Assembly: GCA_963666985.2 (NCBI GenBank)
Contig: CAXXIA010000002.1
Span: 1,952,001 to 2,016,000, forward strand
Direction: 5' to 3'
Origin: Spirochaetia bacterium
GTDB taxonomy: Bacteria; Spirochaetota; Spirochaetia; DSM-2461
DNA length: 64,000 nucleotides
Translations under genes and position numbers: made by a program
Notes under the pieces: model-generated
What the model was told of the DNA's origin: nothing
The model's input: only the letters and a program-made list of their open reading frames with translations
Databases searched by the model: none
Part shown: positions 31,178 to 48,049 of the stretch, piece after piece
Layout of the letters: every line of letters starts with the position of its first letter
Numbering within the stretch: the first letter of the stretch is position 1

Positions 31178-32383
31178 ATGAAATATCTGTTGATGTTCTT
31201 GATGTTTCTTTTCGCCGAAGCTGCGGCGTTTGCGGAGATGGATGCCAATCTGATCGTTGAATTTGTGGGAGAAGATTTCGACAAAGTATCGATAAAGCCG
31301 GATAACACGCGATATCTGTCCATACTGGGTTCTTTCACTCCTCAGTTTGTCTGGAAACAGGGTCGGACTTTGGCGCTGTTAAACGTTCAAATTTATGGAG
31401 AGTTGGGATTGACCGATCCCGCGGATTCTTCGATTGTTTCCGGCAGTTTCGGACGAGAGGGACTCTGGCTGGCGCAAATCAAAGTAGACAGTTTTTTTCA
31501 TGCTTTTTTCGGCGAATCGGACTTCTACTTCAAGGGTGGCCGATACACGGCGGATTTACCGTGGCATTTTGGAGGATTATTTGAAACCGGGACAATTGAG
31601 GCCGGATGGTGGCCGGCTTTCGGGCCGAAAATTTTCTTTCAGCAAATTTGGTATAACTGGAATAAAGAAGATTTTTCCGACGCGGATAATCAATTAATCC
31701 ATTCTCTCGCATTGGATGTTCATTTCTCCGACAGCCGTCTTAAAGTGCGTTTTCCGTTCTCCTTTTCCGAAAACATGCTGGATTTAAGAGTGTTCCCTTC
31801 CGCTGCATATCAATATCATCAGGGGGTTTGGTTATGGGACCTCACGGGAGGTGTAGGCTGGCGGGAGAATATTTCGAAGGAGCAAGGGACGTGCTTCGGT
31901 TTGCGTTCGGAAGTCGAATGGGAATACATCCACGGTCATTCAACTTCGGTCTTGGTCGGTCTCATTTCGGCTTTTGATGAAAGCCGAAATAACTATAAAT
32001 GGGTATCTGTGGACAATAAATATTTCGAACAGCAGTATGGCAGCCATGTGGACTATTTGTACCAGGAAGCGGGAAACGTCGGAGGTCTGGTATCCTTGGG
32101 AGTTCGTCAAACGGGGACTTGGGATTATTCGGGAAACGGCCTTATGAAATTTTGGGTAGGAGGTTCCCTTCATTGGTCCTGGATTAATACCGCAGGAGAC
32201 GGCCATTATATCGGCACCGTCATCGGCGGGGATGTGCGATTCTACGACCTTATCGATGCAAACAGTCTCTTGGAACTCTATGCCAGTCTTCTGATTCCCG
32301 GAAATTACAGTACCGTCGGCGGAACTCAGCAGCGGAATCTCGGTGTCCAAATTATCATCAAGCTGCAGCAAACCCTCTACTGA
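31178..32383 (+). CDS. Putative outer-membrane beta-barrel protein
   Basis: Signal peptide ending AAAFA, aromatic/Gly-rich amphipathic strands, C-terminal aromatic residue (Y). Confidence 0.5.
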   Translation: MKYLLMFLMFLFAEAAAFAEMDANLIVEFVGEDFDKVSIKPDNTRYLSILGSFTPQFVWKQGRTLALLNVQIYGELGLTDPADSSIVSGSFGREGLWLAQIKVDSFFHAFFGESDFYFKGGRYTADLPWHFGGLFETGTIEAGWWPAFGPKIFFQQIWYNWNKEDFSDADNQLIHSLALDVHFSDSRLKVRFPFSFSENMLDLRVFPSAAYQYHQGVWLWDLTGGVGWRENISKEQGTCFGLRSEVEWEYIHGHSTSVLVGLISAFDESRNNYKWVSVDNKYFEQQYGSHVDYLYQEAGNVGGLVSLGVRQTGTWDYSGNGLMKFWVGGSLHWSWINTAGDGHYIGTVIGGDVRFYDLIDANSLLELYASLLIPGNYSTVGGTQQRNLGVQIIIKLQQTLY

Positions 32384-33798
32384 AGTCTTTTACCAATTTG
32401 AAAATAGGCGAGTCGGTTGTACAGTTGCCTCCGCGAGATTCCGAGGGAATCGGCTGCCCGGGACCGGTTGTTGTCATATTTTTTTAATACCGCTTCGAGA
32501 AACCGTTTTTCCGCCGCTTCAAGGTAAGATTTCAATGTATGGGTCAACATTCTTTCGTCCTGTTCCTCGGGAAATTCTTTATGAGGGGCGGACGGGATTT
32601 CGACCGAAGAGAGCGATGGAAGATCTTGCAAAGAAATTTGCGGTCCCGGGGCCAATGTTACGCATCGGGCAACGATGTTTTCCAATTCCCTGATGTTTCC
32701 GGGGAAATTATGGTCTTGCAGAGCAGCCAGAGCTTCTTCCGTGAATCCGTCAAGCGGTGTGTTCCGGACGTTTTTATATTTTTCCAGGAAATGAACGATC
32801 AGCAGGGCAATGTCGTCCCGACGATTCCGCAAAGGAGGCACCTCAAGGGTTAATGTTTCCAAACGAAAGAATAAATCCTGTCGGAAACTTCCGTCGGCCA
32901 CCATCTTCTTCAAATCCCGGTTGGTGGCGGCGATAACATGAACATCGCAGGTTCGCGGCCGACTGTCGCCCAGTCGCTCAAAGCTGCCGTCTTGGAGAAC
33001 ACGCAGCAGTTTTGCCTGTAGTTCCGGCGCCATTTCAGCAATCTCATCCAAGAACAGAGTCCCGTTATCCGCGAGTTCAAATTTACCTTTTCGGTGATTC
33101 TCCGCACCCGTAAAGGCGCCTTTGACATGACCGAACATCTCGCTTTCCAGAAGCTGGGGACTCAACGCCGCGCAATTGACCTTTATAAACGGCCCGTCCC
33201 GGCGAACGCTCCGGTGATGGAGGAAATCGGCCACCAATTCTTTGCCCGTGCCGCTTTCGCCCAGAATGAGCACAGGGAGCGGAGTGTCTTTGATTTGGGT
33301 GAGCTGCCGCATTAAGCGGTCCATGACCGCACTGCGGAAGATAATTCTATGGTTTCTATGCTGGTCGTCCAGCTGAGCTTCAAGCCGTTCCACTTTTTCC
33401 AGGAGTTCGGAATCCTGAATGATTCGCCGAACAACCTCTTCCAGCTCCACCATTTCGAATGGTTTACTCAGGTAGTCAACGGCTCCTTTCCGGATCATTC
33501 CCACGGCTTCCCGAACCTGGCTGTCGGCGGAAATGACAATCACCTTTCCTTTGGGATAACGGTCAAGAAAGCGGTTCAGGAGTTCTCGTCCGTCCAATTC
33601 GGGCATGTGCAGATCGGTAATCAGAAAATGAAAAAAAGACTTTTGAATGCGCTGTAAAGCTTCGGTGGATCGGGAATGATATTCCACCGCTTTATCTCGG
33701 AAAAAAGAGCTGCGGCTCATTTGCCTTTTAAGTGCCGAGAGATACTCCGGTTCGTCGTCTACGACGAGTATACGAAAATTCGGTGTTTCATCTCGCAT
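32377..33798 (-). CDS. Sigma-54-dependent NtrC-family response regulator
   Basis: Receiver, GESGTGKE, GAFTGA, LFLDEI, Fis-type HTH. Confidence 0.95.
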   Translation of the reverse strand: MRDETPNFRILVVDDEPEYLSALKRQMSRSSFFRDKAVEYHSRSTEALQRIQKSFFHFLITDLHMPELDGRELLNRFLDRYPKGKVIVISADSQVREAVGMIRKGAVDYLSKPFEMVELEEVVRRIIQDSELLEKVERLEAQLDDQHRNHRIIFRSAVMDRLMRQLTQIKDTPLPVLILGESGTGKELVADFLHHRSVRRDGPFIKVNCAALSPQLLESEMFGHVKGAFTGAENHRKGKFELADNGTLFLDEIAEMAPELQAKLLRVLQDGSFERLGDSRPRTCDVHVIAATNRDLKKMVADGSFRQDLFFRLETLTLEVPPLRNRRDDIALLIVHFLEKYKNVRNTPLDGFTEEALAALQDHNFPGNIRELENIVARCVTLAPGPQISLQDLPSLSSVEIPSAPHKEFPEEQDERMLTHTLKSYLEAAEKRFLEAVLKKYDNNRSRAADSLGISRRQLYNRLAYFQIGKRLQ

Positions 33799-33883
33799 TC
33801 CGATTCCTCGAATACTATCATAAGATTTAGGAGGTTAACTAATCAACAAACAGCGTCGAAAGAATGCCCGAGGGGTTCGTGCG

Positions 33884-35098
33884 TTGCTGCTGCGTCATCA
33901 GGCTCGAATTTTCCCCTTTTTAGACATCGCCCTTAATGCATTCAACTATCTCTATCATATCTACGTCTCGTGGTATCTCGTACCGGGAAACTACGGTATT
34001 CTCAACGCCCTTTTGGGCTTGTCCGTTATCCTTATGGTCTCGGGCATCGCTTTTCAGAATTTCATGGCCCGAAATCGGTCCGCTTCAGGGGATGTTCCGG
34101 TTCGGGGAAGGATCTTTTTTTCAGGACTGGCCATCTGGGGGGGGATTCCTCCCGTCCTCCTGCTGGGCGGTTCGTTTTGGATAGCGGAATTCACCCGAAG
34201 CTCTTTCAAATCGGTTCTTTTGCTGTCGCTTCTTTATATCATCCATCTGACACTCAGCGCGCTGCGTGGAATTATCCAGGGGAAACGGCATTTCTTGGCT
34301 CTTAATGTCAGTTTCTACATCGAGGTCGGCGTGAAACTGACGCTGCTGTATTTTCTCCTTCCCATCTATCGGTCGGTGGAAATCGCCTTGGCCGTCATCG
34401 TTATCGGCATGGCAGCGTCGCTGATTCACGCCTTTTTCTTTCTCCGTTCTCAAGGAGAGTTTCAGCCTTCGGAGTCTTCCGAACTCTCACGGACCATCAG
34501 GCTCACCGTTATCATGCAGGGCGTCTCCATTCTTTACGCCGCCAACTTGGTTCTTTATCTGTTTACATCTTTGGACATCCTTTTGGTTAATTATCGCTTT
34601 CCGAAAGATGCCGGCATGTTTGCCGTTCTACAGAAATACGGTCAGATCAGCTTCTTCGCCGGATCAAGCCTTATGACCGTTATGCTGCCCAGTCTCGGAG
34701 CCAGTCTTCCGTCCATGAAGAATTTCTCCGGTGTCCTCAGGCGCTTCGCCCTTATCCTCCTTTCCGGTTTGGTTGCCATGATCCTTGCTTACCGTTTCGT
34801 TCTTCCCTGGACCGTGAAGCCCATTTTCGGGGAGGCCTATGCCGCCGCCGCCGATTATCTGGTGCTTTCGGGGCTTACTTATGCGTTTCTGGTGATTGCT
34901 CTGTTCTTCTCAACATCCTTGATTGCGCTGAATAAAAAAGTTTACGTACCCATTCTCGCACTGGGGGCTCTGCTGCTCATTCCCGGCCTGCTCATTGTTC
35001 CTGCGCCGGTGATTAATGTGTTCAAGATGCAGATCGGGATTTATCTCACCCTTGCCCTTGTGCTGGGAATCGTCGTTATAAAGGAGGTCCGTTTATGA
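33884..35098 (+). CDS. Wzx/MOP-type oligosaccharide flippase
   Basis: About 12 TMs, NYLYH, YG.LNAL, RGIIQG..F, DILLV; first gene of a glycosyltransferase operon. Confidence 0.75.
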   Translation: MLLRHQARIFPFLDIALNAFNYLYHIYVSWYLVPGNYGILNALLGLSVILMVSGIAFQNFMARNRSASGDVPVRGRIFFSGLAIWGGIPPVLLLGGSFWIAEFTRSSFKSVLLLSLLYIIHLTLSALRGIIQGKRHFLALNVSFYIEVGVKLTLLYFLLPIYRSVEIALAVIVIGMAASLIHAFFFLRSQGEFQPSESSELSRTIRLTVIMQGVSILYAANLVLYLFTSLDILLVNYRFPKDAGMFAVLQKYGQISFFAGSSLMTVMLPSLGASLPSMKNFSGVLRRFALILLSGLVAMILAYRFVLPWTVKPIFGEAYAAAADYLVLSGLTYAFLVIALFFSTSLIALNKKVYVPILALGALLLIPGLLIVPAPVINVFKMQIGIYLTLALVLGIVVIKEVRL

Positions 35099-36339
35099 AA
35101 TCAGTCGTATTGGAACCGGATAATCGAGTCACGTTGCTCTTCTTGTCTTGGAGGGATATCAAAGCACCGAAAATGGGTGGGGCGGAACTCTACACTCATG
35201 AGATGATGGTCCGGAGCGACCGGAAAGCCTGGCGCATCATCCATTTTTCCCCGGGCGTTCAGGGACTTTCGGATGATGAGGTGATTGACGGTATCCGATA
35301 TCTGAGGGCGGGGGGCATCCTGTCGGTTATCTGGAAAGCCCGTCGGTTCTATAAGGTTAACCGGGAACGAATCCGTTTCGTTATTGACCAGTGCAACAGT
35401 CATCGATTCTTCACCCGGTTCTGGGTGCCGGCGAAAAAACGTGTGTTTTTCATCCATCAGCTCACCCGGGAAATATGGACAATCCAGGCGCCTTTCCCCA
35501 TCGGGTTCATTGGCCGATTGACCGAGAACCCTCTTCTGAAACTTTCACGCAGGGATCCGACTATCGCCGTGTCGCCGTCGACGAAACAGGATCTGCTGGA
35601 TGTAGGATTCTCCGACGCTCTGACCGCTGTTATTCCCGAGGGCTTGGATTTCGAGGTCTGGCCTCCCGAACGATGGCTAGAAAAAGCCGATCCGTCGGTG
35701 TTCGTGTATGTCGGGAGGTATTCCACCTATAAAGGGATCGATGTTGCTCTTCAGGCTTACTTTATCGCCAAAAAAACCCACCCGAGCATCCGGTTCTGGG
35801 TGCTCGGCAAGAGGAATGAAGACTATATCACCCGTCATTTGGCACCGCTTTGTAAGAGGGCCTCGCTCACTCAGGCGGCACCGGGATGGAACAACCCTCC
35901 TTTTGAGACGGTAGCTCCGGAATCCGCCGACGTTATATATTGGGGATTTGTTTCGGAGCAGGAGAAATTGGAGAGAATGTCCCGGGCCAGGCTGCTGATC
36001 TTCCCGTCGATTCGTGAGGGCTGGGGACTGATTATCTCCGAAGCCGCGGCCGTCGGCACGCCCAGCGTAGTCTTCGATGCACCGGGATCCCGGGACGCCG
36101 TGGATAAAGGAAATGCCGGATATCTCTGTGAAACACGGTCGCCGGAGTGTTTCGCCCGACAGATGATTTTGGCCATCGAGGATACTGCCGGTTATGAAGA
36201 TATGCGCTCCCGGGCCCATCGTTTCGCTTCGGTGTTACACTGGGATCGTACCGGTGCGGCCATGGACGCGTTCTTCAACGACTTGCTGAACGGCCGGGAG
36301 CCCGGACATTCCACAACCCTACAGGCTGATTATGATTAA
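35095..36339 (+). CDS. Glycosyltransferase family 4
   Basis: WRDIKAPKMGGAE, VGR...KG, PSIREGWGLIISEAAAVGTP. Confidence 0.9.
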   Translation: MKSVVLEPDNRVTLLFLSWRDIKAPKMGGAELYTHEMMVRSDRKAWRIIHFSPGVQGLSDDEVIDGIRYLRAGGILSVIWKARRFYKVNRERIRFVIDQCNSHRFFTRFWVPAKKRVFFIHQLTREIWTIQAPFPIGFIGRLTENPLLKLSRRDPTIAVSPSTKQDLLDVGFSDALTAVIPEGLDFEVWPPERWLEKADPSVFVYVGRYSTYKGIDVALQAYFIAKKTHPSIRFWVLGKRNEDYITRHLAPLCKRASLTQAAPGWNNPPFETVAPESADVIYWGFVSEQEKLERMSRARLLIFPSIREGWGLIISEAAAVGTPSVVFDAPGSRDAVDKGNAGYLCETRSPECFARQMILAIEDTAGYEDMRSRAHRFASVLHWDRTGAAMDAFFNDLLNGREPGHSTTLQADYD

Positions 36340-37249
36340 GAAACCGGCTGAAACTCTTCAGTCATCCGTTAGCTCACCGGTGTTGGGCATTGCCTTTTCC
36401 TGCTTTAACAATGGGGAAACCGCCGGAAAGTGTCTTGCCAGCTGCATTGCTCAGAGCTGGAAAAATCTTGTTATTGAGGCGGCCGACGACGGTTCGACCG
36501 ACAACACGGTCGAAATCTTAATGCGAACCTCGGGAGATGATTCACGGGTGCATGTCCTGGAACTGTCTCATGGTGAACGCGGCGTGGCACGTAAAGCCGC
36601 CATCGACGCCTTGAGGGAAAAAGGATGCGATTACCTGTTGTTCATTGATTCTGATATGGAATTGGCCTCCGATCTTTGCGAACTCTGCTTGGAGAACTTA
36701 GCTGTTCACCCGGAGATAGGCGCTTTAGTGATTCCCGAGATTCCCTGGAGCGAATCGACGAATTTCTTTACCCGGGTTAAAATTTTCGAACGTTCGATTT
36801 TAAACAATGCCGGGAAACGTATCGGACGATTTTCCATCGAGGCGGCCAGATTCTGGCGGTTTCCTGTTTATGACCTTTCGGGCGGCATCAGCGAAACTCA
36901 GATCGCCTTCGAGGAGACCCAGCCGACGATTCGTTATCTGGACCAGGGAGGAATCGTCCGGCGGGCGGTTTTCACCGGTATGAAGCATAATGAAGGGTAT
37001 AACACGTTCAAGGCGATCATGGATAAGAAACGCTACTATTTCGATGCCATGCAGGGAACGATTACAGAGGAACGACAAGGCTTCTTTAAGGCCCTCTCTC
37101 GCTGGTATTTCTTTCGGCCGGTACTCTATCGTCCCTCCAACATGCTTCGTTATCTCCGCCATCCCGTTCTGGCATTGGCGATGTTTTATATGTATTTCCG
37201 ATTGAGCTTCGCGGCATTCGGAGCCTGGATGCGCAAGCGGAAGGGATAG
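36332..37249 (+). CDS. Glycosyltransferase family 2
   Basis: DDGSTDNT and FIDSD (DxD). Confidence 0.85.
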   Translation: MIKKPAETLQSSVSSPVLGIAFSCFNNGETAGKCLASCIAQSWKNLVIEAADDGSTDNTVEILMRTSGDDSRVHVLELSHGERGVARKAAIDALREKGCDYLLFIDSDMELASDLCELCLENLAVHPEIGALVIPEIPWSESTNFFTRVKIFERSILNNAGKRIGRFSIEAARFWRFPVYDLSGGISETQIAFEETQPTIRYLDQGGIVRRAVFTGMKHNEGYNTFKAIMDKKRYYFDAMQGTITEERQGFFKALSRWYFFRPVLYRPSNMLRYLRHPVLALAMFYMYFRLSFAAFGAWMRKRKG

Positions 37250-37290
37250 GACTTCGGACTGTGGTCCGACCAAAGGACCGGGAGGTTCCC

Positions 37291-37860
37291 TTATTCCCAG
37301 ATTAAGAATGGGCCGGTTCCATTCTCATGAATCTTCTTTCCATTATTCCCGATATGCCGGGAGGACGGCGAAGCGGCCAGCACCGAACCCGACGGTCCGC
37401 ATAGGACAACCGGTGTGTCGGCGGACTCGACAAGGTTCACCGCGTCTTTTTCTTCGAAACAGAAATTTCCCCGGTGTTTTAAAAGTTCGGCGTATTCCAG
37501 CGCCTGTAAAATTAAGTCTTTGGCTTCCTGGTTCACTCGCCAAGGTTTTGTTATGAACCGGAAAACCTCACCCCGATTAATCGCCGAGAGGATCATCGGA
37601 ATCTGTGCGTGGCCGGAGAGGACGATGCGTACCGTTCGAGGTGAAATTTCCTTGACCTTCTCAAGAAGAACCAAGCCGTTCATATCCGCCATCAGCAGAT
37701 CGCTGACCAGAACATCAATGTTCCGATCGGCGAGAATGGTGAGGGCTTCTTCCGGACTTGTAGTAAAAATTTGTTCAAAAGATTCGTTTCTCAGAAGGCG
37801 CTTGAGGGAGTCGAGGACCGGGAGTTCGTCGTCGACGAACAGAACTTTACTCCGTTCCAT
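37291..37860 (-). CDS. Response regulator receiver with short C-terminal extension
   Basis: LFVDDE, VSDLLM, LSG, KPW. Confidence 0.88.
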   Translation of the reverse strand: MERSKVLFVDDELPVLDSLKRLLRNESFEQIFTTSPEEALTILADRNIDVLVSDLLMADMNGLVLLEKVKEISPRTVRIVLSGHAQIPMILSAINRGEVFRFITKPWRVNQEAKDLILQALEYAELLKHRGNFCFEEKDAVNLVESADTPVVLCGPSGSVLAASPSSRHIGNNGKKIHENGTGPFLIWE

Positions 37861-38962
37861 ATGATACTCCTCGATTCATCTTCGGGATTGTACGGATCGA
37901 TCGGAGGAAGCGGAGCGAATCGCGGATGATGTCGACGTGGGAACCTTCCCGATCGATACAGACTACCGGCATCTGCAGAACCCTGAAACGAAGTTTGCGT
38001 GCCAGATACATCATTTCCAGGTCGATGGCCAATCCGTTCTCTTCATGGAGATGATGGAGAATATGGCGGGCGGCCACCGCGTTCATGGCCTTTAGACCGG
38101 TTTGTGAATCGTAAACTCCGGGGGGCAGCAGGCGGGATGTCAGTCTCCTCTTACCGAAACTCATCAAGCGGCGAATGGGAGGCCTGTTTTCGGCTGTGAG
38201 ATCCTTTGTCCCCACAACCATGTCGTAATATCCTTCCCTCAGGATGTTGATCATCTTCGAGATATCCTCGATACGGAATGAGTCGTCGGCATCCGCAAAC
38301 ACAAGGATATCGGCCTTAATCGACTGTATCCCCTGAATGTAAGTTCCCGCCTTTCTCGTATTCTTTTGGAGATTCTGAAGGGAGAAAAAAGGTTCCCTGT
38401 GCACGATGTTCACATCTTCACTTTCCTGGGCGATGATATGGTCGATAACCTTCTGCGTGTTGTCCGCGCTTCCGTCGTTGATGAAATAGATCGTGGTGTT
38501 GAGAAACGCCTTTTCCATAAAAACGCGAAGTTTCTTCAAGAAACTGTAGACGTTCTCGATGCGGGCTTCTTCGTTGTAAACGGGAAGAATGACCGCGATG
38601 TCGTTCCGCACCGAAGAGTATTCCTGATGCATCAGTGTTTCGACTTTCTCCAAAAGCTGTTCCGGATATTCGGATCTCCAGTAAAGCAAAGAAACCGGCC
38701 CATATCCGGGGATGTTTCGGAGGAATCCGGTTTTGTTTTTTGTGATGTAATCTTCAATGAATAGAAGTGGGATATCCGGACGCATTCCTCGAACTTTCGC
38801 GGCGGTATCAGCAATCGCCGCATCGTCGTTTCGGTCGATGATGACGGCATTCACCTCATCGCCGAGTTCGGATGTTTCATTGAGGCTTACGTCGAAAAAC
38901 GACAAGATTTTGTTATAGGGAATGGCTCTATCTCCGTCTGAAACCACAGAAATAGCAGACAT
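37847..38962 (-). CDS. GT2 polyprenol-phosphate glycosyltransferase-like protein with an extra N-terminal domain
   Basis: ILPVYNE, INDGSAD, DADD, DSQTGLKA (DPM/DPG-synthase-like). GGAGGTG RBS before ATG 38962. Confidence 0.82.
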   Translation of the reverse strand: MSAISVVSDGDRAIPYNKILSFFDVSLNETSELGDEVNAVIIDRNDDAAIADTAAKVRGMRPDIPLLFIEDYITKNKTGFLRNIPGYGPVSLLYWRSEYPEQLLEKVETLMHQEYSSVRNDIAVILPVYNEEARIENVYSFLKKLRVFMEKAFLNTTIYFINDGSADNTQKVIDHIIAQESEDVNIVHREPFFSLQNLQKNTRKAGTYIQGIQSIKADILVFADADDSFRIEDISKMINILREGYYDMVVGTKDLTAENRPPIRRLMSFGKRRLTSRLLPPGVYDSQTGLKAMNAVAARHILHHLHEENGLAIDLEMMYLARKLRFRVLQMPVVCIDREGSHVDIIRDSLRFLRSIRTIPKMNRGVSYGTE

Positions 38963-39274
38963 TTTTACACCTCCGCTAAAAGCGTAATTCATCATTTTAC
39001 AGGAAACAATACGTCATTTTTCCAGCGGAAATAATTATTGGATGGAGGGATTCGACGAATTGTCTTCCGGAGTATCGAAAATCATGCAAAGACTCGAACC
39101 AAATCTTCTTCCGATCGCCTTATGCACCCGTGTTCGCCGAAAATTCGGAAATTTCAGTCCGGGACGGCTTTATCAGTCCTGCCGATGCGGGCCGATGGCT
39201 TCGGGAAGAACCTCCGTACGGCAGTACCCGGCATAAAAAGATATGGTACGCCGCGAATCCGCCCATATGCCGAT

Positions 39275-40363
39275 TCAATTATCTTGTGCCGATCGTTTGA
39301 GTGAATCGCCGCGTCCCCAATCAACGGTGAGTCCTGCCTGCCGTGCAATGTCATTATAGAGTTCCGGGAGTTCATCCTTGGAAGAGTCTGCGGTAATGCT
39401 TTTTTTCCCCGGAAAAAGATTGTATTGAGACCTGAACGACTGAGGTGTAAAGCACGGCATAAGAACATTGGCTCCCGCCAGAAGTCCCTCGACGCGATAA
39501 TCCGCGTCCATACTGCCGAGAGCCGTTGTTGTCGGCATCCATGCGCTGCGGGTTAGCAGCCGGGTGAGCGCGATAACACGCAGTGTCAGAGGTACATCCC
39601 CAGCCGGTTCGTTTCGCAGAGGCGTCGCCGGATGGGGAATAAAGGGACCGATTCCGATCATGTCGAAATCAAACTCGTGAAAGTAGGCTATATCATGAGC
39701 GATATGGGATATTGTCTGACCCGGCACGCCGACCATAATGCCGCTCCCCGTTTGGTACCCCAAATCCCGTAAATCCCGGAGCGCTTGAAGCCGAGTTTCT
39801 ACGCTTCGATTTTCATGAAGGGAGGCATAAAGCGATTCATCGACAGCTTCAATACGAAGGAGATAGCGGTCCGCTCCGGCCTCTCTCCACTCGGCATAAT
39901 CGGAGCGCGGCCTTTCTCCCGCGGAGAGTGTTACGGCCATTCCGGTTTCGGTTTTTATTCGTTTGACAACATCTGAGAGCCGAGAGGCCGGCGTGGCGCC
40001 TTCTCCCGACTGAAGCACAACGGTTCGTATTCCCGCATTCGCTATTCGGCGGGCCGCCGCGGCGATATGATCCGCCGACATGTGATATCGCTTTAGTGCC
40101 CGATTCTTTCGGTTCAGACCGCAGTAAAAACATGTGTTGCCGCAGATGTTTGAAAATTCAATAAGTCCACGGATAAGCATCCGCGGTCCGCACGCCTCAT
40201 TCCTCATCTTTCTCGCTTCGGCGAGAAGAATCTCATGTTCCTCCGGGCCCCCCGCCCGCAGCAGAAGTTCTATATCGGATATGGATGGCGGCGGTTTCGG
40301 ATTATTCTGCGAACGGATGCCGCGGATTCGGTCGAGAGCGGCGATATAGTCTTTTCGTATCAT
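39275..40363 (-). CDS. hydE: [FeFe]-hydrogenase maturase HydE-type radical SAM protein
   Basis: RGLIEFSNICGNTCFYCG, LQSGE, GIGPFIPHP.TP, GANVLMP, Y.LFPGK. Confidence 0.85.
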   Translation of the reverse strand: MIRKDYIAALDRIRGIRSQNNPKPPPSISDIELLLRAGGPEEHEILLAEARKMRNEACGPRMLIRGLIEFSNICGNTCFYCGLNRKNRALKRYHMSADHIAAAARRIANAGIRTVVLQSGEGATPASRLSDVVKRIKTETGMAVTLSAGERPRSDYAEWREAGADRYLLRIEAVDESLYASLHENRSVETRLQALRDLRDLGYQTGSGIMVGVPGQTISHIAHDIAYFHEFDFDMIGIGPFIPHPATPLRNEPAGDVPLTLRVIALTRLLTRSAWMPTTTALGSMDADYRVEGLLAGANVLMPCFTPQSFRSQYNLFPGKKSITADSSKDELPELYNDIARQAGLTVDWGRGDSLKRSAQDN

Positions 40364-41664
40364 GCTCCGACCCGGCTGTTTGTTTTGTTTTCAATGGCAT
40401 GCCTGTAAGCCTCCAGCGCCGCCGGGAACGGCGAAAGAGTCCGTTCAACAACGCCCTGCAGCGTGGAAATCGCAATGCCGTAATTGGTCATGGCAACACC
40501 GGCGGACCGGGCCTGCTCGATACGCCATAACATTTCGCGGCGGGTGAGGGTACATCCTCCGCAGTGAATTATCAGCCGATACCGGGAAAGATCCTCAGGG
40601 TAGTCTTTTCCGGCATAATGATCGATTTCGAGATGAATCCCGGAAAATTGCCGAAGCCATCGGGGAATCTTGACTCGGCCGATATCGTCCGCCAAGGGAT
40701 GATGCGAGCATGCTTCCGAAATGAGAATTCTATCTCCCTCTTTGAGTAAAGACAGCACCGCCGCGCCTTCCGCCAAATAGGAAATGTTCCCTTTATAGCG
40801 GGAGAACAAAATGGAAAAGGTTGTGCACGGAACATTGGACGGGGTGTCAGCGGTCATTTTCAGAACGATTTGCGAATCGCAGACAACCAGATCGGGCGGA
40901 TTCTTCAGGCAGGAGAGGTAGGCCGGGAACTCCCGTTCCTTAACAACGGTTACCGCGGCGTCGCTGTCGAGGGCGTCCCGTATCGACTGTACCTGCGGCA
41001 GTATGAGACGTCCTTTCGGGGCCTGGAGGTCGATCGGTACGATGAGAGCGACCACCGGGAGTCCTTTGCCGACGGGAAGCAGATCTCCCAGAATGGCCGG
41101 AGGGTTAAGAAAATCATCGGGGCATACCGCGATCAGATTTTTTTTCAGTTCCAGAATAATCGTTTCACGGAGATGAGCCGCCTCGGAGGCCGTGCGGCGC
41201 TCATTGGTTACCGAAGTACTTTCCATAATGTAAGAGCTTTTTTTTTCGAGCTCTTCAATCCATGTTTTGCTCGGTTTTTTCAGGTCCGTCTTGTTGATGA
41301 CAAAGATGATTGGAATCTTCCGATCTTTACAGGCTTCAATAATTTTCTCTTCAAAAGGAGTCCATACGTCGCTTTCGAGAATGATTAAAGCCACATCAGA
41401 TGCGGAAAGAGCCATGGTTGTTTTTTCGACGCGAAGAGCACCTAAAGACGATTCATCATCAATTCCCGCGGTATCCAGAAAAACAACGGGACCCAGCGGA
41501 AGCAGTTCCATCGATTTATAAACAACGTCGGTGGTTGTTCCTTCCGTGGAGGAAACAATAGAGGCGGGCTGATCGGCTATTGTATTGAGGAAGCTTGATT
41601 TGCCCGTGTTTGTTCTTCCGAAAATTCCGATATGCAGGCGAAGGGATTTGGGTGTTTTCATCAT
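40360..41664 (-). CDS. hydF: [FeFe]-hydrogenase maturation GTPase
   Basis: GRTNTGKSS, GTTTD, DTAG, NKTD, APKGRLILPQ, EACSHH, HCGGC. Confidence 0.95.
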   Translation of the reverse strand: MMKTPKSLRLHIGIFGRTNTGKSSFLNTIADQPASIVSSTEGTTTDVVYKSMELLPLGPVVFLDTAGIDDESSLGALRVEKTTMALSASDVALIILESDVWTPFEEKIIEACKDRKIPIIFVINKTDLKKPSKTWIEELEKKSSYIMESTSVTNERRTASEAAHLRETIILELKKNLIAVCPDDFLNPPAILGDLLPVGKGLPVVALIVPIDLQAPKGRLILPQVQSIRDALDSDAAVTVVKEREFPAYLSCLKNPPDLVVCDSQIVLKMTADTPSNVPCTTFSILFSRYKGNISYLAEGAAVLSLLKEGDRILISEACSHHPLADDIGRVKIPRWLRQFSGIHLEIDHYAGKDYPEDLSRYRLIIHCGGCTLTRREMLWRIEQARSAGVAMTNYGIAISTLQGVVERTLSPFPAALEAYRHAIENKTNSRVGA

Positions 41665-41676
41665 TGCGGGGTTTCC

Positions 41677-43083
41677 TTAATCTTGATATCCGAGAGCCGA
41701 AAGCGCCGCCGGAGAAAATGATTTTTCAATAATGCTTCCGTCCAGTTTTTGTTCGAGGAATACGCGGAGAAACGGACGTTCCTCTTTGGGAGTGGAAATG
41801 TACTCCGTAACGAGTTTTGCCGTTTCCGTGTATCCGATATGAGGAATGAGCGCGGTAAGCACCATCGGTTCGCGGTCCAGCAAATCTCCGCAGACCTCCG
41901 GCGATGCGTCGATAAGAACAATGTGGGACCGCAGCATGATGTCGGCATTGCGGAGCAGCTTGAGCGCTTCGATGAACGTATCCGCGATGAGCGGGAGAAA
42001 TTCGTTTATTTGAAGAGTTCCCCCCGCCGAAGCTTCCGCGATAAGAGCCATATCGGCTTTTGCTTTCATGGCGGCTTGAATAACCGCTTCCGGAATCACC
42101 GGATTCACCTTGCCCGGCATAATCGATGAACCGACCTGAACGGCGGGCAGCTTTATTTCACCGGTAAAAGAAAGGAATCGCAGATCACGGGCCGCCTTTT
42201 GAAGATTTACGGCATGGGCGGTGATAATACCGGCGACTTCCACCAGCGAATCGGAATTGGCCGTTTGGTCCACTAAATTTTCCGCCCGGGCCAAACCGTA
42301 TCCGGTCAGTTCGCGTAAATTTTCAATTACTCGGAAAATATATCGTTTCGGCGCGGTGAGTCCCGTGCCGACCGCGGTACCGCCTATATTGACGACGCGC
42401 AGTCGTTCTTCGCATTTGAACGTGCGCCACCGGTCGCGGCCGAAAGCTTCCGAATATGAAGAGAAGATCGTGCCCAGCGTCATGGGCACGGCCGCTTGCC
42501 ACTCGGTTCTTCCGGTTGTAACAATGTGCGCGAAAGCCTTTTCTTTCTCCTGAAAGGCTCCTTGGAGCGCCTCCGTCGTACCGGCCAGTTTCCGAATCAA
42601 TTCGATAAGGCAGATTTTCAAGGCGCTTGGAAAGGTGTCGTTTGTCGATTGGTGAAGGTTCACGTGGGCTAGAGGATCGACGCCGTCATCTCCGTAGTCA
42701 CCGGGCCGCCGCCCCAGGAAAAGATTCGCCTGATTGGCGATAACCTCGTTGATGTTCATATTCAAGGACGTTCCCGCTCCGCCCTGGAGAGCGTCCACGG
42801 GAAACTCTTCATCCAATTCATGGGAAAGTATCCGGTCGCAGGCGTTTCTAATAGCCTCCGCCCTTCGGCCGTCCAGATAATTCAGTTCGTAATTTGTTTT
42901 CGCACAGGCCTTTTTAACAAGGGCATACGCACGAATCAGATGCGGATCCACCGGCCGGCCGGCGAGGGGAAAATTTTCAACCGCCCGAGCCGTATGGATG
43001 CCCCATAACGCGGAGGCGGGAATGTTTTTTTTCCCAAGGGTATCCGATTCTTCTCTGTAATGAGATTCTGTGTCGTCTTTCAC
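41677..43083 (-). CDS. aspA: Aspartate ammonia-lyase family protein
   Basis: QGGAGTS.NMN.NEV, QSTND, GGTAVGTG, GSSIMPGKVNP. Confidence 0.85.
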   Translation of the reverse strand: MKDDTESHYREESDTLGKKNIPASALWGIHTARAVENFPLAGRPVDPHLIRAYALVKKACAKTNYELNYLDGRRAEAIRNACDRILSHELDEEFPVDALQGGAGTSLNMNINEVIANQANLFLGRRPGDYGDDGVDPLAHVNLHQSTNDTFPSALKICLIELIRKLAGTTEALQGAFQEKEKAFAHIVTTGRTEWQAAVPMTLGTIFSSYSEAFGRDRWRTFKCEERLRVVNIGGTAVGTGLTAPKRYIFRVIENLRELTGYGLARAENLVDQTANSDSLVEVAGIITAHAVNLQKAARDLRFLSFTGEIKLPAVQVGSSIMPGKVNPVIPEAVIQAAMKAKADMALIAEASAGGTLQINEFLPLIADTFIEALKLLRNADIMLRSHIVLIDASPEVCGDLLDREPMVLTALIPHIGYTETAKLVTEYISTPKEERPFLRVFLEQKLDGSIIEKSFSPAALSALGYQD

Positions 43084-43910
43084 GTTTTCCCTCTTTGATG
43101 CGGCGCTTCACACCTGTGTTCCCGCGACGCGGATGAGATTTGAGAGCGCATGATGGATTCTTCGATTTGGGCGACATTCTCCGCAAAGGCCGAAGCGGTT
43201 CGTTGACGCGGGCGTTCCAGAGTGATGGCGATGTCGTGAACTATGGTTCCTTCGTTCATCGTAAGAACCCTGTCCGCTAAGAGAACCGCTTCTCCGATGT
43301 CATGGGTAACAAGAAAAATCGTCGGCTGCCGTTCCTTCCATAACCGATCCAGTTCTTGCTGAAGCTGCAAGCGCGTAAAGGCGTCGAGAGCGCCGAACGG
43401 TTCATCCAAAAGCCATAAGGAGCGGTTCTGGCATAATGCCCGTGCAAGATTAATGCGCTGTGCCATCCCCCCGGAAAGATGGCGCGGATAGGATGCAAGC
43501 CGCTTTTCCATGTGTACAAGAGTCGCGGCGTCCCGAATACGTCTGCGGGCATCCTCTTCCGGCACGTGTTCGGAGCGAAGAGCCAGCAGCAGATTTTTTT
43601 CAACCGTAAGCCAGGGAAGCAGCCTGGCATCCTGGAAGACCAGAGCCGAGACACCGCGGGCCCGATCCTGCCGAACCCCTTCAAATTCGATTGTTCCGTC
43701 ATTGGGTGTACGCAGACCGGCGATAAGACGAAGTAAAGACGTTTTTCCGCAGCCGCTGGAACCGACAATGGCTGTAAACCCGCCCGCATCGACACGAAGA
43801 GAAAGGGCGTTGACCGCCGTAACAGGATTGGAGCCATTCTCGTAGATGCATGTAAGATGGCGGAGATTTACGGCAATCAAAGGCGCTCCTTTGATTGCTC
43901 GGCCGTCCAC
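43080..43910 (-). CDS. ABC transporter ATPase (NitT/TauT/SsuB type)
   Basis: GSSGCGKT, LSGGMAQR, LLDEPFGALD. Confidence 0.93.
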   Translation of the reverse strand: MDGRAIKGAPLIAVNLRHLTCIYENGSNPVTAVNALSLRVDAGGFTAIVGSSGCGKTSLLRLIAGLRTPNDGTIEFEGVRQDRARGVSALVFQDARLLPWLTVEKNLLLALRSEHVPEEDARRRIRDAATLVHMEKRLASYPRHLSGGMAQRINLARALCQNRSLWLLDEPFGALDAFTRLQLQQELDRLWKERQPTIFLVTHDIGEAVLLADRVLTMNEGTIVHDIAITLERPRQRTASAFAENVAQIEESIMRSQISSASREHRCEAPHQRGKT

Positions 43911-44671
43911 GGAGAAAGGCGGAGCGTTATCGCGCCGAGTATGCCCTCAAAGATAAATCCCAGCACCCCAATCGCCAGAATGCCGACCAGAACGCGGTCG
44001 GTTCTCGCCATTTCCTGTGAGTCCAAGATGAGATATCCAAGCCCCGAAGCGGCGGCAAAAAGTTCGGCTCCGACCAAAGCGCGCCAAGAATATCCGAAAC
44101 CGATGCGTAAGCCCGTTACTATGTGGGGAAAGGCGCCGGGAAGAAGAATAAAGCGAAGGCGATCAAATCCGGAGAGATTCAGGGTTGCCGCCAGTTCGTG
44201 CCATCGGGTATCAACCTGTTGAAAACCGTCAAAGGCGTTTAAGAATATGGGAAAAAAAGCGGCTAATACTATAACGGCGATCTTCGAACTTTCGCCTATA
44301 CCGAACCAAAGGATGAGCAGCGGAATAAGGGCCAGCGGCGGAGTTGCCCGCAGAAATGAGAGAAGAAACGAACTTCGTTCCATCCAGCGGATTCTCCGGT
44401 GAAGAAACAGAGCCAAGGGAAGGGCAATGGAAACAGTTATGCCGTATCCGATAAAGACGCGGCGAAGACTGACGGCAATATGATGCGGCAGCGACCCGGA
44501 GAGAGTTAACCTCCATCCTTCGCGCAGAACCTTTTCCGGCGAAGGAATCAAATAGTCATTTATAAGTTCCAATTTGGAAAGAAGACCCCACAGCAGGAGC
44601 AGCATTAGCGGCAGCCATGATTTTCTTATAAGAGTTGAAAATCTTAAAGGAGATCTCCGAAACAACGTCAT
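43877..44671 (-). CDS. ABC transporter permease (NitT/TauT/SsuC type)
   Basis: PPLALIPLLILWFGIGE, LVGAEL.AA.SGLG. Confidence 0.93.
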   Translation of the reverse strand: MTLFRRSPLRFSTLIRKSWLPLMLLLLWGLLSKLELINDYLIPSPEKVLREGWRLTLSGSLPHHIAVSLRRVFIGYGITVSIALPLALFLHRRIRWMERSSFLLSFLRATPPLALIPLLILWFGIGESSKIAVIVLAAFFPIFLNAFDGFQQVDTRWHELAATLNLSGFDRLRFILLPGAFPHIVTGLRIGFGYSWRALVGAELFAAASGLGYLILDSQEMARTDRVLVGILAIGVLGFIFEGILGAITLRLSPWTAEQSKERL

Positions 44672-44681
44672 TTTTGACTAT

Positions 44682-45647
44682 CTACCGGCCCAAGGCGGAG
44701 GGCAAAATGAAATCGTCCGGATTCACTTCCCGTTCGATCATACCCTGCCGAAGAAGAAACCGTATGTCATCGTTCATGCTCGCCACGTCTTCCGGAGAAA
44801 GACTGAGTGTAAAATCGGACCAGTCGTAAAGCATGCGGGCATCGTCCATACTGATTTCATGCTCCGCGGCGCCGATTGCGAGGGCCTCTTCGGTATTGAG
44901 CTCAATGTAATCCATGGCTTTTTCTTGAACGGAGATATACCGGCTTATAAGTTCCGGATATTCATTCCAAAACTCCGGACGCACTCCAACCACAAGTTTC
45001 GGAATCGCATAGCCTTCGGCCGTTGCGAGAAGACGGCAGCCTGCCTCTTTGTTCCGGATAATAAGGCTTGCCGCCTGCAGTGCCGCATCAACTTGGCCGT
45101 CCAGCAGCGCCGCCCGAGACTGCGGAAGACCCATGGAAAAAAATTCGATGTCCGATTCCGTAAGACCTTCCGAGGCCAGGGCCGCGATAAGAATCTGATG
45201 AAGCACCGTTCCTTTGGGACCGGCAACTTTCGCTCCCCGTAATTCGGCAATTGTTTGAGGACCGTTCGGACCCGTCATGATGCCGAAAGTTTTTTGCGGA
45301 CGGCTGAATCCGGATGCGATAAGAACCTGATTCCCCGCGGCATTCGCCAGAACAACCGAAGTACTGTTGATAACGGAGGCAATATCGAGAGAGCCTGCGG
45401 CCATTGCTTCCGCCTGGCGGGCTCCGGAGGTTATTTCGTGCCAGTTAATTGTAATTTCATCGTCTTCAAATTCTTGTTCGAGCAATCCTTGTTCCTTCAT
45501 GATGATGATGGGCAGGTTGAAGGGAGAGGTAACATAGGAAACGTTTATTGCAGTCGGCTTCGGATTTATTTCAGCCCGGCCTGCCGAAACAAAAAGGAAG
45601 AGTGCCGCGGAAACCGTCAGAATGATAAAAATGCCGTTTTTCTTCAT
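44682..45647 (-). CDS. ABC substrate-binding protein (SsuA/NMT1/THI5-like)
   Basis: Signal peptide, SGA...AMAAGSLD, L.G.KVAGPKGT, ALLDGQVDAA. Confidence 0.88.
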   Translation of the reverse strand: MKKNGIFIILTVSAALFLFVSAGRAEINPKPTAINVSYVTSPFNLPIIIMKEQGLLEQEFEDDEITINWHEITSGARQAEAMAAGSLDIASVINSTSVVLANAAGNQVLIASGFSRPQKTFGIMTGPNGPQTIAELRGAKVAGPKGTVLHQILIAALASEGLTESDIEFFSMGLPQSRAALLDGQVDAALQAASLIIRNKEAGCRLLATAEGYAIPKLVVGVRPEFWNEYPELISRYISVQEKAMDYIELNTEEALAIGAAEHEISMDDARMLYDWSDFTLSLSPEDVASMNDDIRFLLRQGMIEREVNPDDFILPSALGR

Positions 45648-45690
45648 GGTAAAGATCCTTCATATCCGCATCTGCGGGATTTTAATTGAG

Positions 45691-45939
45691 TTAGAGTTTT
45701 GCGAGAGTTGATTTCACCGTGACATCGGGTATCATTCCGATTTTGCCGGTTAAATCTCCGATTTTGTCCGTTGACGCGTCGACGATCAGCGTAATGATAT
45801 TCAGGTTTCTTTCCCGATACGGGAGGCCCAATCGGCCGATAATGATTTCACCGAATTGGGATAATAACGAATTAACTTCGGCTACGGATGAGGCTCTGTT
45901 CTTGACGATAATCGCGATAACTCCTACGGCTTTCTGCAT
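45691..45939 (-). CDS. TM1266-family iron-only hydrogenase system putative regulator
   Basis: 82 aa, VIAIIV...VNSLLS....IIGRLGLPY...LTGKIG..PDVTVK. AAGGAG RBS. Confidence 0.88.
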   Translation of the reverse strand: MQKAVGVIAIIVKNRASSVAEVNSLLSQFGEIIIGRLGLPYRERNLNIITLIVDASTDKIGDLTGKIGMIPDVTVKSTLAKL

Positions 45940-46013
45940 AAGACATCTCCTTTCCGGCAATGGAATCGGAGCGATCGCACAATCGCGTATCGCCATTTTT
46001 CCATGACCAAATG

Positions 46014-46169
46014 AACCTGAGGGAAAAGGATAATGTGCTTTGATTAGAAAGGTCGCAGAGTATCCGCCCGCCGCAATTCCGCACGCATATTGCGGCCATT
46101 CCGGCATCGTGGATTGATGAGAAACTCAATTACGACCCTCGGCTTCAGACGGTATCCTTACCTCAGGCT
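46014..46169 (-). ncRNA. Candidate structured leader RNA upstream of the hyd maturation operon
   Basis: Nested helices: AGCCUGAGG/CCUCAGGUU, AAGGAUA/UAUCCUU, AGGGUCGUA/UGCGACCUU, GAGU/ACUC, GCCGCAAU/AUUGCGGC. Confidence 0.5.
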
Positions 46170-46433
46170 GTATGTCGGATTTCTATACCGTTTCTGAGAA
46201 CGGTATGCGAATCGCTGTATTAGCTTTGCAGTATCGGGAAAAAATAGCAAGAAGAAAATCGAATCGGTTCGGTATTTCCCGCATCTTCGACGATTCAATC
46301 CGAAATTCAGAGCATTTAAGTCCGAATCGATCACCGGGGCGGCCTGTTGGATCACGGCAATTTTCTTCAACGGTAATTCCGCACCATGAAATCAAACAGC
46401 ACCGGAATCTACAAATTTATCCGTGAATTACTG

Positions 46434-46464
46434 AAAAAAGCCGGTGCCCCAAAGACACCGGCTT
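46434..46464 (-). terminator. Rho-independent terminator after gnd
   Basis: AAGCCGGTG-loop-CACCGGCTT followed by a T-run on the minus strand. Confidence 0.75.
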
Positions 46465-46540
46465 CAATTCATCTCTTCAATTCATCTCTTCAATTCGTGC
46501 GTCGTATGTCGTACGTCGCACGCGTTATCGGGATTGCTTC

Positions 46541-48049
<1,509 letters not shown>

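Follow-up and report, generated by a model that had tools for sequence, protein, structure and literature searches.

An ABC importer in a hydG-less [FeFe]-hydrogenase maturation operon points to a probable HydG bypass by import

The operon and its genome

The window analyzed here is a stretch of 64,000 nucleotides from a Spirochaetia bacterium (assembly GCA_963666985.2, contig CAXXIA010000002.1), and it carries an [FeFe]-hydrogenase maturation operon that contains the genes of an ATP-binding cassette (ABC) importer and lacks hydG. Seven intact open reading frames (ORFs), all on the minus strand at 39275-45939, lie in the order TM1266, binding protein, permease, ATPase, aspA-like gene, hydF and hydE, with intergenic gaps of 43, 10, -34, -4, 12 and -4 bases; 279 bases separate hydE from the next downstream gene. 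From this spacing on the contig the seven genes are predicted to be co-transcribed. In a second strain, from another study (run X4), one 11,969-base contig spans 39256-46446 with 117 letter differences and 1 gap, and its flank diverges from the window just below hydE. ORF coordinates, gaps and this contig together confirm the tightly coupled seven-gene operon described in an earlier, sequence-only reading of the window. Scans for promoters and terminators did not rise above chance (7 vs 6.8 and 9 vs 10.0), and an Rfam search of 38000-47500 at E<=1 gave no match, with no thiamin pyrophosphate (TPP) riboswitch or other known RNA found upstream; the same search of 7 related loci found tRNAs only. 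Downstream of hydE, window positions 32377-38995 hold two response regulators, glycosyltransferases and a flippase-like gene, a cluster that the second strain does not have beside hydE.

The first gene of the operon (45691..45939) encodes a small protein of the TM1266 family, a putative hydrogenase-maturation regulator (TIGR03959, 105.3 bits against a cut-off of 60.8; PF21699); a small regulator gene beside hydG has been noted before (PMC6391272). HydF, the H-cluster maturation GTPase and scaffold (40360..41664; TIGR03918, 505.2 vs 325.55), and the radical S-adenosylmethionine (SAM) maturase HydE (39275..40363; TIGR03956, 318.9 vs 254.6) likewise pass their NCBIfam cut-offs, whereas the aspA-like gene and the three transporter genes fall below the cut-off of every named family. 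The aspartate ammonia-lyase-like gene, of the hyd-operon type (41677..43083; NF008909, 487.8 vs 510; TIGR00839, 380.9 vs 681.2), retains the catalytic loop GSSIMPGKVN. An aspA gene beside hydF is already known, with AspA supplying ammonium (PMC11736057), and the product encoded here is likely the ammonium source for the dithiomethylamine bridge. The importer comprises a substrate-binding protein (44682..45647), an SsuC/TauC-like permease (43877..44671; PF00528; NF008470, 162.2 against 347) and an SsuB-like ATPase (43080..43910; PF00005; NF008420, 212 against 395).

Absence of both hydG and hydA from the window had been reported in the sequence-only reading; both statements hold, and the first extends to the whole assembly (here G000; 4.86 Mb, 3 contigs, 93.1% complete, contig ends without overlaps). 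The sole match of a HydG profile to the assembly is hydE itself (39.3 bits vs a cut-off of 312.15), three HydG proteins of relatives used as queries match hydE only, and none of the 29 radical SAM genes of the genome that were inspected is HydG- or ThiH-like. No replacement was recognizable among these 29; three small genes and one of SPASM type fit no clear family. Another possible cyanide source, hypF, was not found in the genome. The hydA genes sit elsewhere: 7 PF02906 matches fall across 6 HydA genes, of which three large ones look like members of bifurcating-type operons and three weaker ones look like sensory types. H-cluster motifs two and three are present in both intact large HydA genes, and motif one was matched in one of them. 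The third large gene is split by a frameshift (G000:C2:2729100-2730891), and the adjoining ORFs also look broken, which may be sequencing error. Single copies of hydE, hydF and the binding protein gene were found. Relative to canonical HydE/HydF/HydG maturation, as in T. maritima and Clostridium, the organism thus shares an operon of genuine hydE, hydF, TM1266 and aspA-like genes, with HydA targets encoded elsewhere, but it lacks hydG. In two relatives of the same genus (G006 and G011) the order is TM1266-hydG-hydE, and the importer of the window genome takes the place after TM1266 where these relatives have hydG.

A second TM1266-like gene (49% identity; G000:C2:2433375-2433670) stands away from the hyd genes and immediately follows an apparently FecBCD-like ABC importer; members of the TM1266 family may be sensors of a metal or metal complex that go together with importers. 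A nifB gene over its cut-off lies at G000:C1:708223-709623, and the genome probably encodes a nitrogenase.

What remains of the maturation pathway appears intact. In HydF the GTPase motifs are present, and CSH at 319 with HCGGC at 367 matches the HydF cluster motif CxH...HCxxC. The scores of HydE against the PylB (140.5) and BioB (84.3) models lie far under the cut-offs of those families, and its closest solved structures are those of T. maritima HydE (E 2e-84). It keeps the radical SAM motif CX3CX2C together with V105, L157, M224, M291 and K309, residues named in PMC11826987. Across 31 aligned HydE sequences from hydG-less genomes, M224, M291 and L157 are present in 31/31, V105 in 30 and K309 in 19, the last compared with 27/33 of the hydG-bearing ones; the alignment thus indicates that the synthon-handling residues are kept when hydG is absent. 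In seven gene pairs from hydG-less genomes, the ratio of nonsynonymous to synonymous substitution rates (dN/dS) is about 0.05-0.21, one pair having saturated dS; values of about 0.05-0.14 for hydE, hydF and the binding protein indicate purifying selection. HydA was found in 5/5 hydG-less genomes checked, with 2 to 7 matches each.

These results bear on whether the hydrogenases go unmatured, or whether HydE and HydF build some other cofactor, with the operon a relic or repurposed. The frameshift in one of three large HydA genes is compatible with decay, as are two positions, picked from the alignment, at which the window HydE is unusual: C at N293, unlike all others, and F at Y306, unlike nearly all. 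Two Cohaesibacter genomes, moreover, keep HydA where hydF and hydG were not found (G047:C11:827466-828320 and G052:C31:179875-180729; a 620-residue HydA, the importer and an FmdE-fold gene discussed below). Seven intact ORFs, HydE and HydF scores above equivalog cut-offs, preserved motifs, purifying selection and the consistent presence of HydA make this explanation improbable. The different cofactor raised as an alternative in the sequence-only reading likewise finds no support: residues of the solved enzyme are conserved in HydE, and the HydA genes carry H-cluster motifs.

The importer clade and the loss of hydG

The binding protein has an SsuA/NMT1 fold and belongs to a separate clade. Its structure model (predicted local distance difference test score 92.8) matches SsuA best in Foldseek (E 6e-23, template-modeling score 0.79-0.81, 21-22% identity), and PF09084 matches at 49 bits. 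Sulfonate and taurine importers of the SsuABC/TauABC type, the best sequence and structure matches, share this fold and the three-gene layout, and to that extent the label "SsuABC-like" given in the sequence-only reading stands. The sulfonate and taurine family cut-offs, however, are not reached (TIGR01728, 139.6 vs 163.5; NF008588, 73.1 vs 299; TIGR01729, 41.3 vs 304.25), residues differ in several cleft segments of an SsuA/TauA alignment, and the operon has no desulfonation gene. Scores for SaoABP-type transporters are also too low (NF040729, 193.7 vs 360; NF040733, 138.1 vs 295). The fold class further includes binders of thiamin precursors and pyrroloquinoline quinone (PQQ), namely ThiXYZ, thiamin-binding protein and PqqT, but identity to these is 13-16%, neither a TPP riboswitch nor thi genes were found beside the operon, and the cargo proposed below is an organometallic intermediate. 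ESM Atlas returned generic SsuA/NMT1 clusters only, and a name-based search for clostridial relatives gave mostly Acidaminococcaceae-type proteins.

Gene neighborhoods link the clade to hydE. Among the best 80 of 159 GTDB loci, hydE lies within 10 kb in 21, and hydG is also present in 2 of those 21; hyd genes occur in 9 of 80 metagenome loci, mostly short, and hydG in none. The hydE-linked loci include Spirochaetia, Desulfobacterium and Negativicutes. A one-contig Desulfobacterium chromosome (G089) has the order hydA-importer-hydE-aspA-hydF and a Negativicutes genome has importer-hydF-aspA, hydG being found in neither, nor in a further one-contig genome (G311). Two genomes (G049 and G130) have TM1266-importer-hydG-hydE, the state expected before hydG loss. 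In G053, TM1266 is followed by 285 bases and then aspA, hydE and hydF, with the importer elsewhere; locus L010 has hydG in that gap. Searches for hydG remnants near hydG-less operons gave cross-matches to hydE only. In the genomes of the first 50 of the 80 loci, of unstated completeness, hydF is present in 33, with hydG over cut-off in 13 of these, a fragment in 2 and no match in 18. Where the binding protein gene stands alone (genus g23 and G173), a cognate permease is encoded elsewhere in the genome in 4/4 cases. The sole hydG-bearing member of g23 (G153:C2:221318-222727) has a hydG that scores 908 bits, compared with 400-520 for most of the class, and lies apart from the other hyd genes; it was possibly regained by transfer. 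In two hydG-less genomes of genus g105, a beta-eliminating lyase of the tyrosine phenol-lyase/tryptophanase family is encoded just upstream of the importer (L239:5542-6918 and L250:2911-4287).

The anti-correlation with hydG proposed in the sequence-only reading was examined in three samples, each searched for hydE, hydG and importer, not hydF. In the class, 301 genomes at least 92% complete (G000 included) gave 108 with hydE (E<=1e-50), 90 with hydG and 34 with the binding protein; the hydG search (E<=1e-70) misses small or weaker fragments. Among the 103 genomes with hydE over the cut-off, 15 have the importer and no hydG (14 without G000), 16 have both, none lacks both, and 72 have hydG without the importer. 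With five sub-cut-off hydE sequences included, the counts in the same order are 15, 16, 3 and 74 (Fisher p 2e-7, with kin not independent), and by genus they are 7, 5, 0 and 40 (p 6e-6). The 7 genera of importer-bearing, hydG-less genomes fall in 5 families, each with hydG-bearing members. All 31 strong importer matches are in hydE genomes and none in the 193 hydE-less ones, where three weak matches (1e-66) occur. In the family of genome G063, 65 genomes that probably overlap the class sample and whose center genome was picked for its hydG-less state, 41 have hydE; the importer is present in 4 of the 5 that lack hydG, the center genome among them, the fifth having hydE cut by a contig end, and in 3 of 36 hydG-bearing genomes. 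Among Negativicutes (241 genomes at least 95% complete, 216 with hydE), the hydE genomes without hydG number 22 of 57 where the importer is present and 22 of 159 where it is not (odds ratio 3.9, p 2e-4). Loss of hydG is thus confined to importer-bearing genomes of the class (15/15) and enriched among them in Negativicutes; across genomes, losing hydG shows a real and sharp dependence on having the importer.

Could hydG simply be missing from the assemblies? The window genome is 93.1% complete in 3 contigs without end overlaps, 13 of the 15 hydG-less importer genomes of the class are in 50-360 contigs, and small fragments escape the search. Yet completeness in one- and two-contig genomes of the genus is itself 92-95%, which puts 93% close to the attainable maximum, and the window genome has all 20 types of tRNA. 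Incompleteness, moreover, does not explain loss in 15/31 importer-bearing against 0/72 comparable importer-less genomes, and hydG is lacking from the one-contig G311 and G089. An artifact of assembly is therefore very improbable. In importer-less genomes of the class hydG often adjoins hydE, which shields it from separate loss.

The cargo of the importer

HydG makes Fe(CO)2(CN)cysteinate, the substrate of HydE, and a synthetic form of this mononuclear unit (syn-B) allows HydE and HydF to mature HydA in vitro without HydG (PMC11256358). With a preformed diiron complex, neither HydG nor HydE is needed (PMC11736057). Where hydE is kept and hydG is lost, an imported compound should enter upstream of HydE. 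It is probable that the importer makes HydG dispensable, by bringing in either a built synthon or a simpler source of cyanide. Of these we favor, as slightly more likely than not overall, uptake of the HydG-made mononuclear unit, or of a stabler carrier, as the start of a HydG-free route to the H-cluster. The importer, with the binding protein as candidate receptor for an Fe(CO)(CN) precursor, would bring in from outside either the Fe(CO)2(CN)cysteinate known as complex B or some longer-lived carrier of it; the source may be release by HydG-bearing neighbors or decay of the neighbors' hydrogenases. HydE would turn the imported mononuclear unit into the diiron unit, HydF would add the bridge using AspA-derived ammonium, and the finished product would mature the HydA proteins of the genome, giving presumptive hydrogenase activity. 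The binding protein has no conserved cysteine, a feature that would fit a whole anion as ligand better than a metal alone. The sequence-only reading had offered a synthon or a sulfur or amine precursor as cargo; the phyletic pattern favors the former as the HydG product, and the latter fits worse because it is hydG, not hydE or hydF, that goes missing.

An ordinary feedstock nevertheless deserves consideration: a sulfonate or other sulfur compound, an amine or a metal chelate might help maturation while carbon monoxide (CO) and cyanide (CN) come by a separate route, the correlation arising from shared lineage, niche or co-transfer. The nearest named families are indeed sulfonate and taurine importers, five Clostridium acetogens lack hydG (PMC9431212), active hydrogenases without maturases have been reported (PMC11216029), and the window HydE is merely 41-42% identical to the HydE of same-genus relatives, so that the operon may have been transferred as a unit. 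However, no importer-less hydE genome of the class (0/72) lacks hydG, and the link persists at a distance, with importer and hydE well separated in genus g23 and G053, and in three phyla. Cluster sulfur comes from the cysteine of the HydG product, so that supplying sulfur would leave the need for hydG in place, and no shared replacement gene near hydE was seen in the 40 stretches read. We regard this explanation as unlikely.

Negativicutes also speak for it. In this class 22 genomes with hydE have neither hydG nor the clade importer, and one of them, the one-contig G458, gives only a 2.8e-6 match to the binding protein and is taken to lack a homolog. Nine of the 11 for which the hydE region was inspected share neighbors, counted by eye, and look like one lineage. 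This lineage (L219-L228; e.g., G458:C1:2024000-2043000) keeps hydE, hydF and HydA under selection without hydG or importer. A replacement gene was sought beside hydE in these genomes; the neighbors are housekeeping genes or encode lineage-specific secreted proteins.

Genomes with a different partner gene bear on how specific the cargo can be. A small gene accompanies the importer in 25 of the best 80 GTDB loci, with 1 locus having both hydE and this partner, and in 18 of the 80 metagenome loci. Its product matches nothing in Pfam, NCBIfam or the PDB by sequence and has the FmdE fold (Z 13.6, rmsd 2.9, 140 residues); the gene is absent from the window genome. The FmdE family is often found beside metal transporters (PMC2954224). 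The partner follows the importer in proteobacteria and some spirochaetes (L039:10957-12043, L034, L047, L061 and L354:10038-13473), singly or as a pair, one copy having a YHG motif. Iron-uptake genes were considered as a hint to the ligand and are not enriched: they neighbor 3 of 31 partner-gene loci and 5 of 58 others, counts that include query-source loci and place L357 wrongly among the partner-bearing ones. The ORF at L357 we take, from its appearance, to be a luciferase-like oxidoreductase.

Such carriers give some weight to a second form of the bypass, in which the importer takes up a simpler, stable cyanide-supplying anion (a ferrocyanide-type metal-cyanide complex, thiocyanate, cyanate or cyanide) and Fe(CO)2(CN)cysteinate is assembled in the cell without HydG. 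This would still circumvent HydG, but it would not be cross-feeding of a built synthon. It accounts for the same phyletic pattern, sidesteps the instability of complex B and would give carriers of the FmdE-fold partner that lack hydrogenase a use for the ligand, and SsuA-type folds do bind small anions. HydE and HydF without HydG gave about 1% activation, doubled by added CO or cyanide (related in PMC9431212). An activity of 1% is little, though, given the three large HydA genes of the genome; the operon has no source of CO and no assembly protein, the FmdE-fold gene is absent from the genome, and iron-uptake neighbors are not enriched. On balance this version is possible but not what we expect, and somewhat more credible than a feedstock importer.

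Uptake of the HydG product itself faces several difficulties. Complex B has a half-life of minutes and syn-B lasts hours in water, and direct hand-over from HydG to HydE is cited (both PMC11256358). In 5 of 10 genomes tested, the clade with the FmdE-fold gene occurs where there is no HydA match, and clade and partner are carried together on six E. coli plasmid records and one Azospirillum plasmid. A transporter serving hydrogenase alone is not supported by such carriers, and a strictly hydrogenase-specific cargo is, on this distribution, doubtful. In a midpoint-rooted FastTree phylogeny of 137 binding proteins (with duplicates, branch supports not considered), hydE-linked and partner-linked branches are mixed, which makes one ligand with two uses likelier than two ligands. 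Importer and hydG are not strictly exclusive, as 16 of the 31 importer genomes of the class keep hydG and 2 of the 21 hydE-linked loci have it within 10 kb. The conservation of hydE and hydF in Negativicutes without hydG or importer indicates that another HydG-free route exists. To these may be added the two unusual residues of the window HydE, the non-independence of kin, by which p-values are overstated, and the fact that many of the genomes are metagenome-assembled.

Relation to known systems and significance

Salvage importers are known in kind, and the logic of cofactor salvage, in which an importer covers a lost biosynthetic step, is familiar; an organometallic cargo would be new, and we know of no salvage importer for an organometallic intermediate. 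The closest experimental parallel is semi-synthetic maturation with syn-B, in which HydE and HydF are likewise enough once the mononuclear synthon is supplied from outside; that system is in vitro and uses a chemically made compound, and the available text describes neither a natural source nor a transporter (PMC11256358, where HydG is also called inefficient). The closest genomic parallel is among Clostridium acetogens, of which 5 of 8 species have hydE and hydF with hydG not found, as in the window genome; the absence is left unexplained, an atypical radical SAM enzyme or free CO and CN being proposed, and a transporter is not discussed in the portion of the paper available (PMC9431212). Most archaea with [FeFe]-hydrogenase have no maturases, and their enzymes are assumed to mature by another pathway (PMC11216029). 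A literature search that left out most subscription papers and the supplements of PMC11736057 and PMC11216029 gave no paper connecting an ABC importer with loss of hydG, and to that extent the statement in the sequence-only reading that such cofactor cross-feeding was not known to have been described is sustained.

The operon points to an undescribed bypass of HydG by import. How [FeFe]-hydrogenase becomes active where maturases are missing is unsettled in the literature (PMC9431212, PMC11216029), and three importer genes with a chemically makeable ligand offer a concrete, testable handle on it. The association suggests that some microbes take the Fe-CO-CN starter unit from their neighbors. 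More tentatively, and with rather less confidence than in the uptake itself, the HydG-made unit may circulate among anaerobes as a shared good, with this ABC clade as the uptake system by which bacteria of gut, sediment and bioreactor, from at least three phyla, can do without hydG; carriers of the FmdE-fold partner would use the same cargo otherwise, and the Cohaesibacter partner might replace further maturases. If the importer does carry such a compound, its hosts would have a vitamin-like dependence on Fe(CO)(CN), and the transporter would be a means of feeding synthetic H-cluster precursors into engineered cells without HydG. The hydrogen metabolism of fermenters would then be tied to that of their neighbors, which could explain the poor solo growth of some anaerobes.

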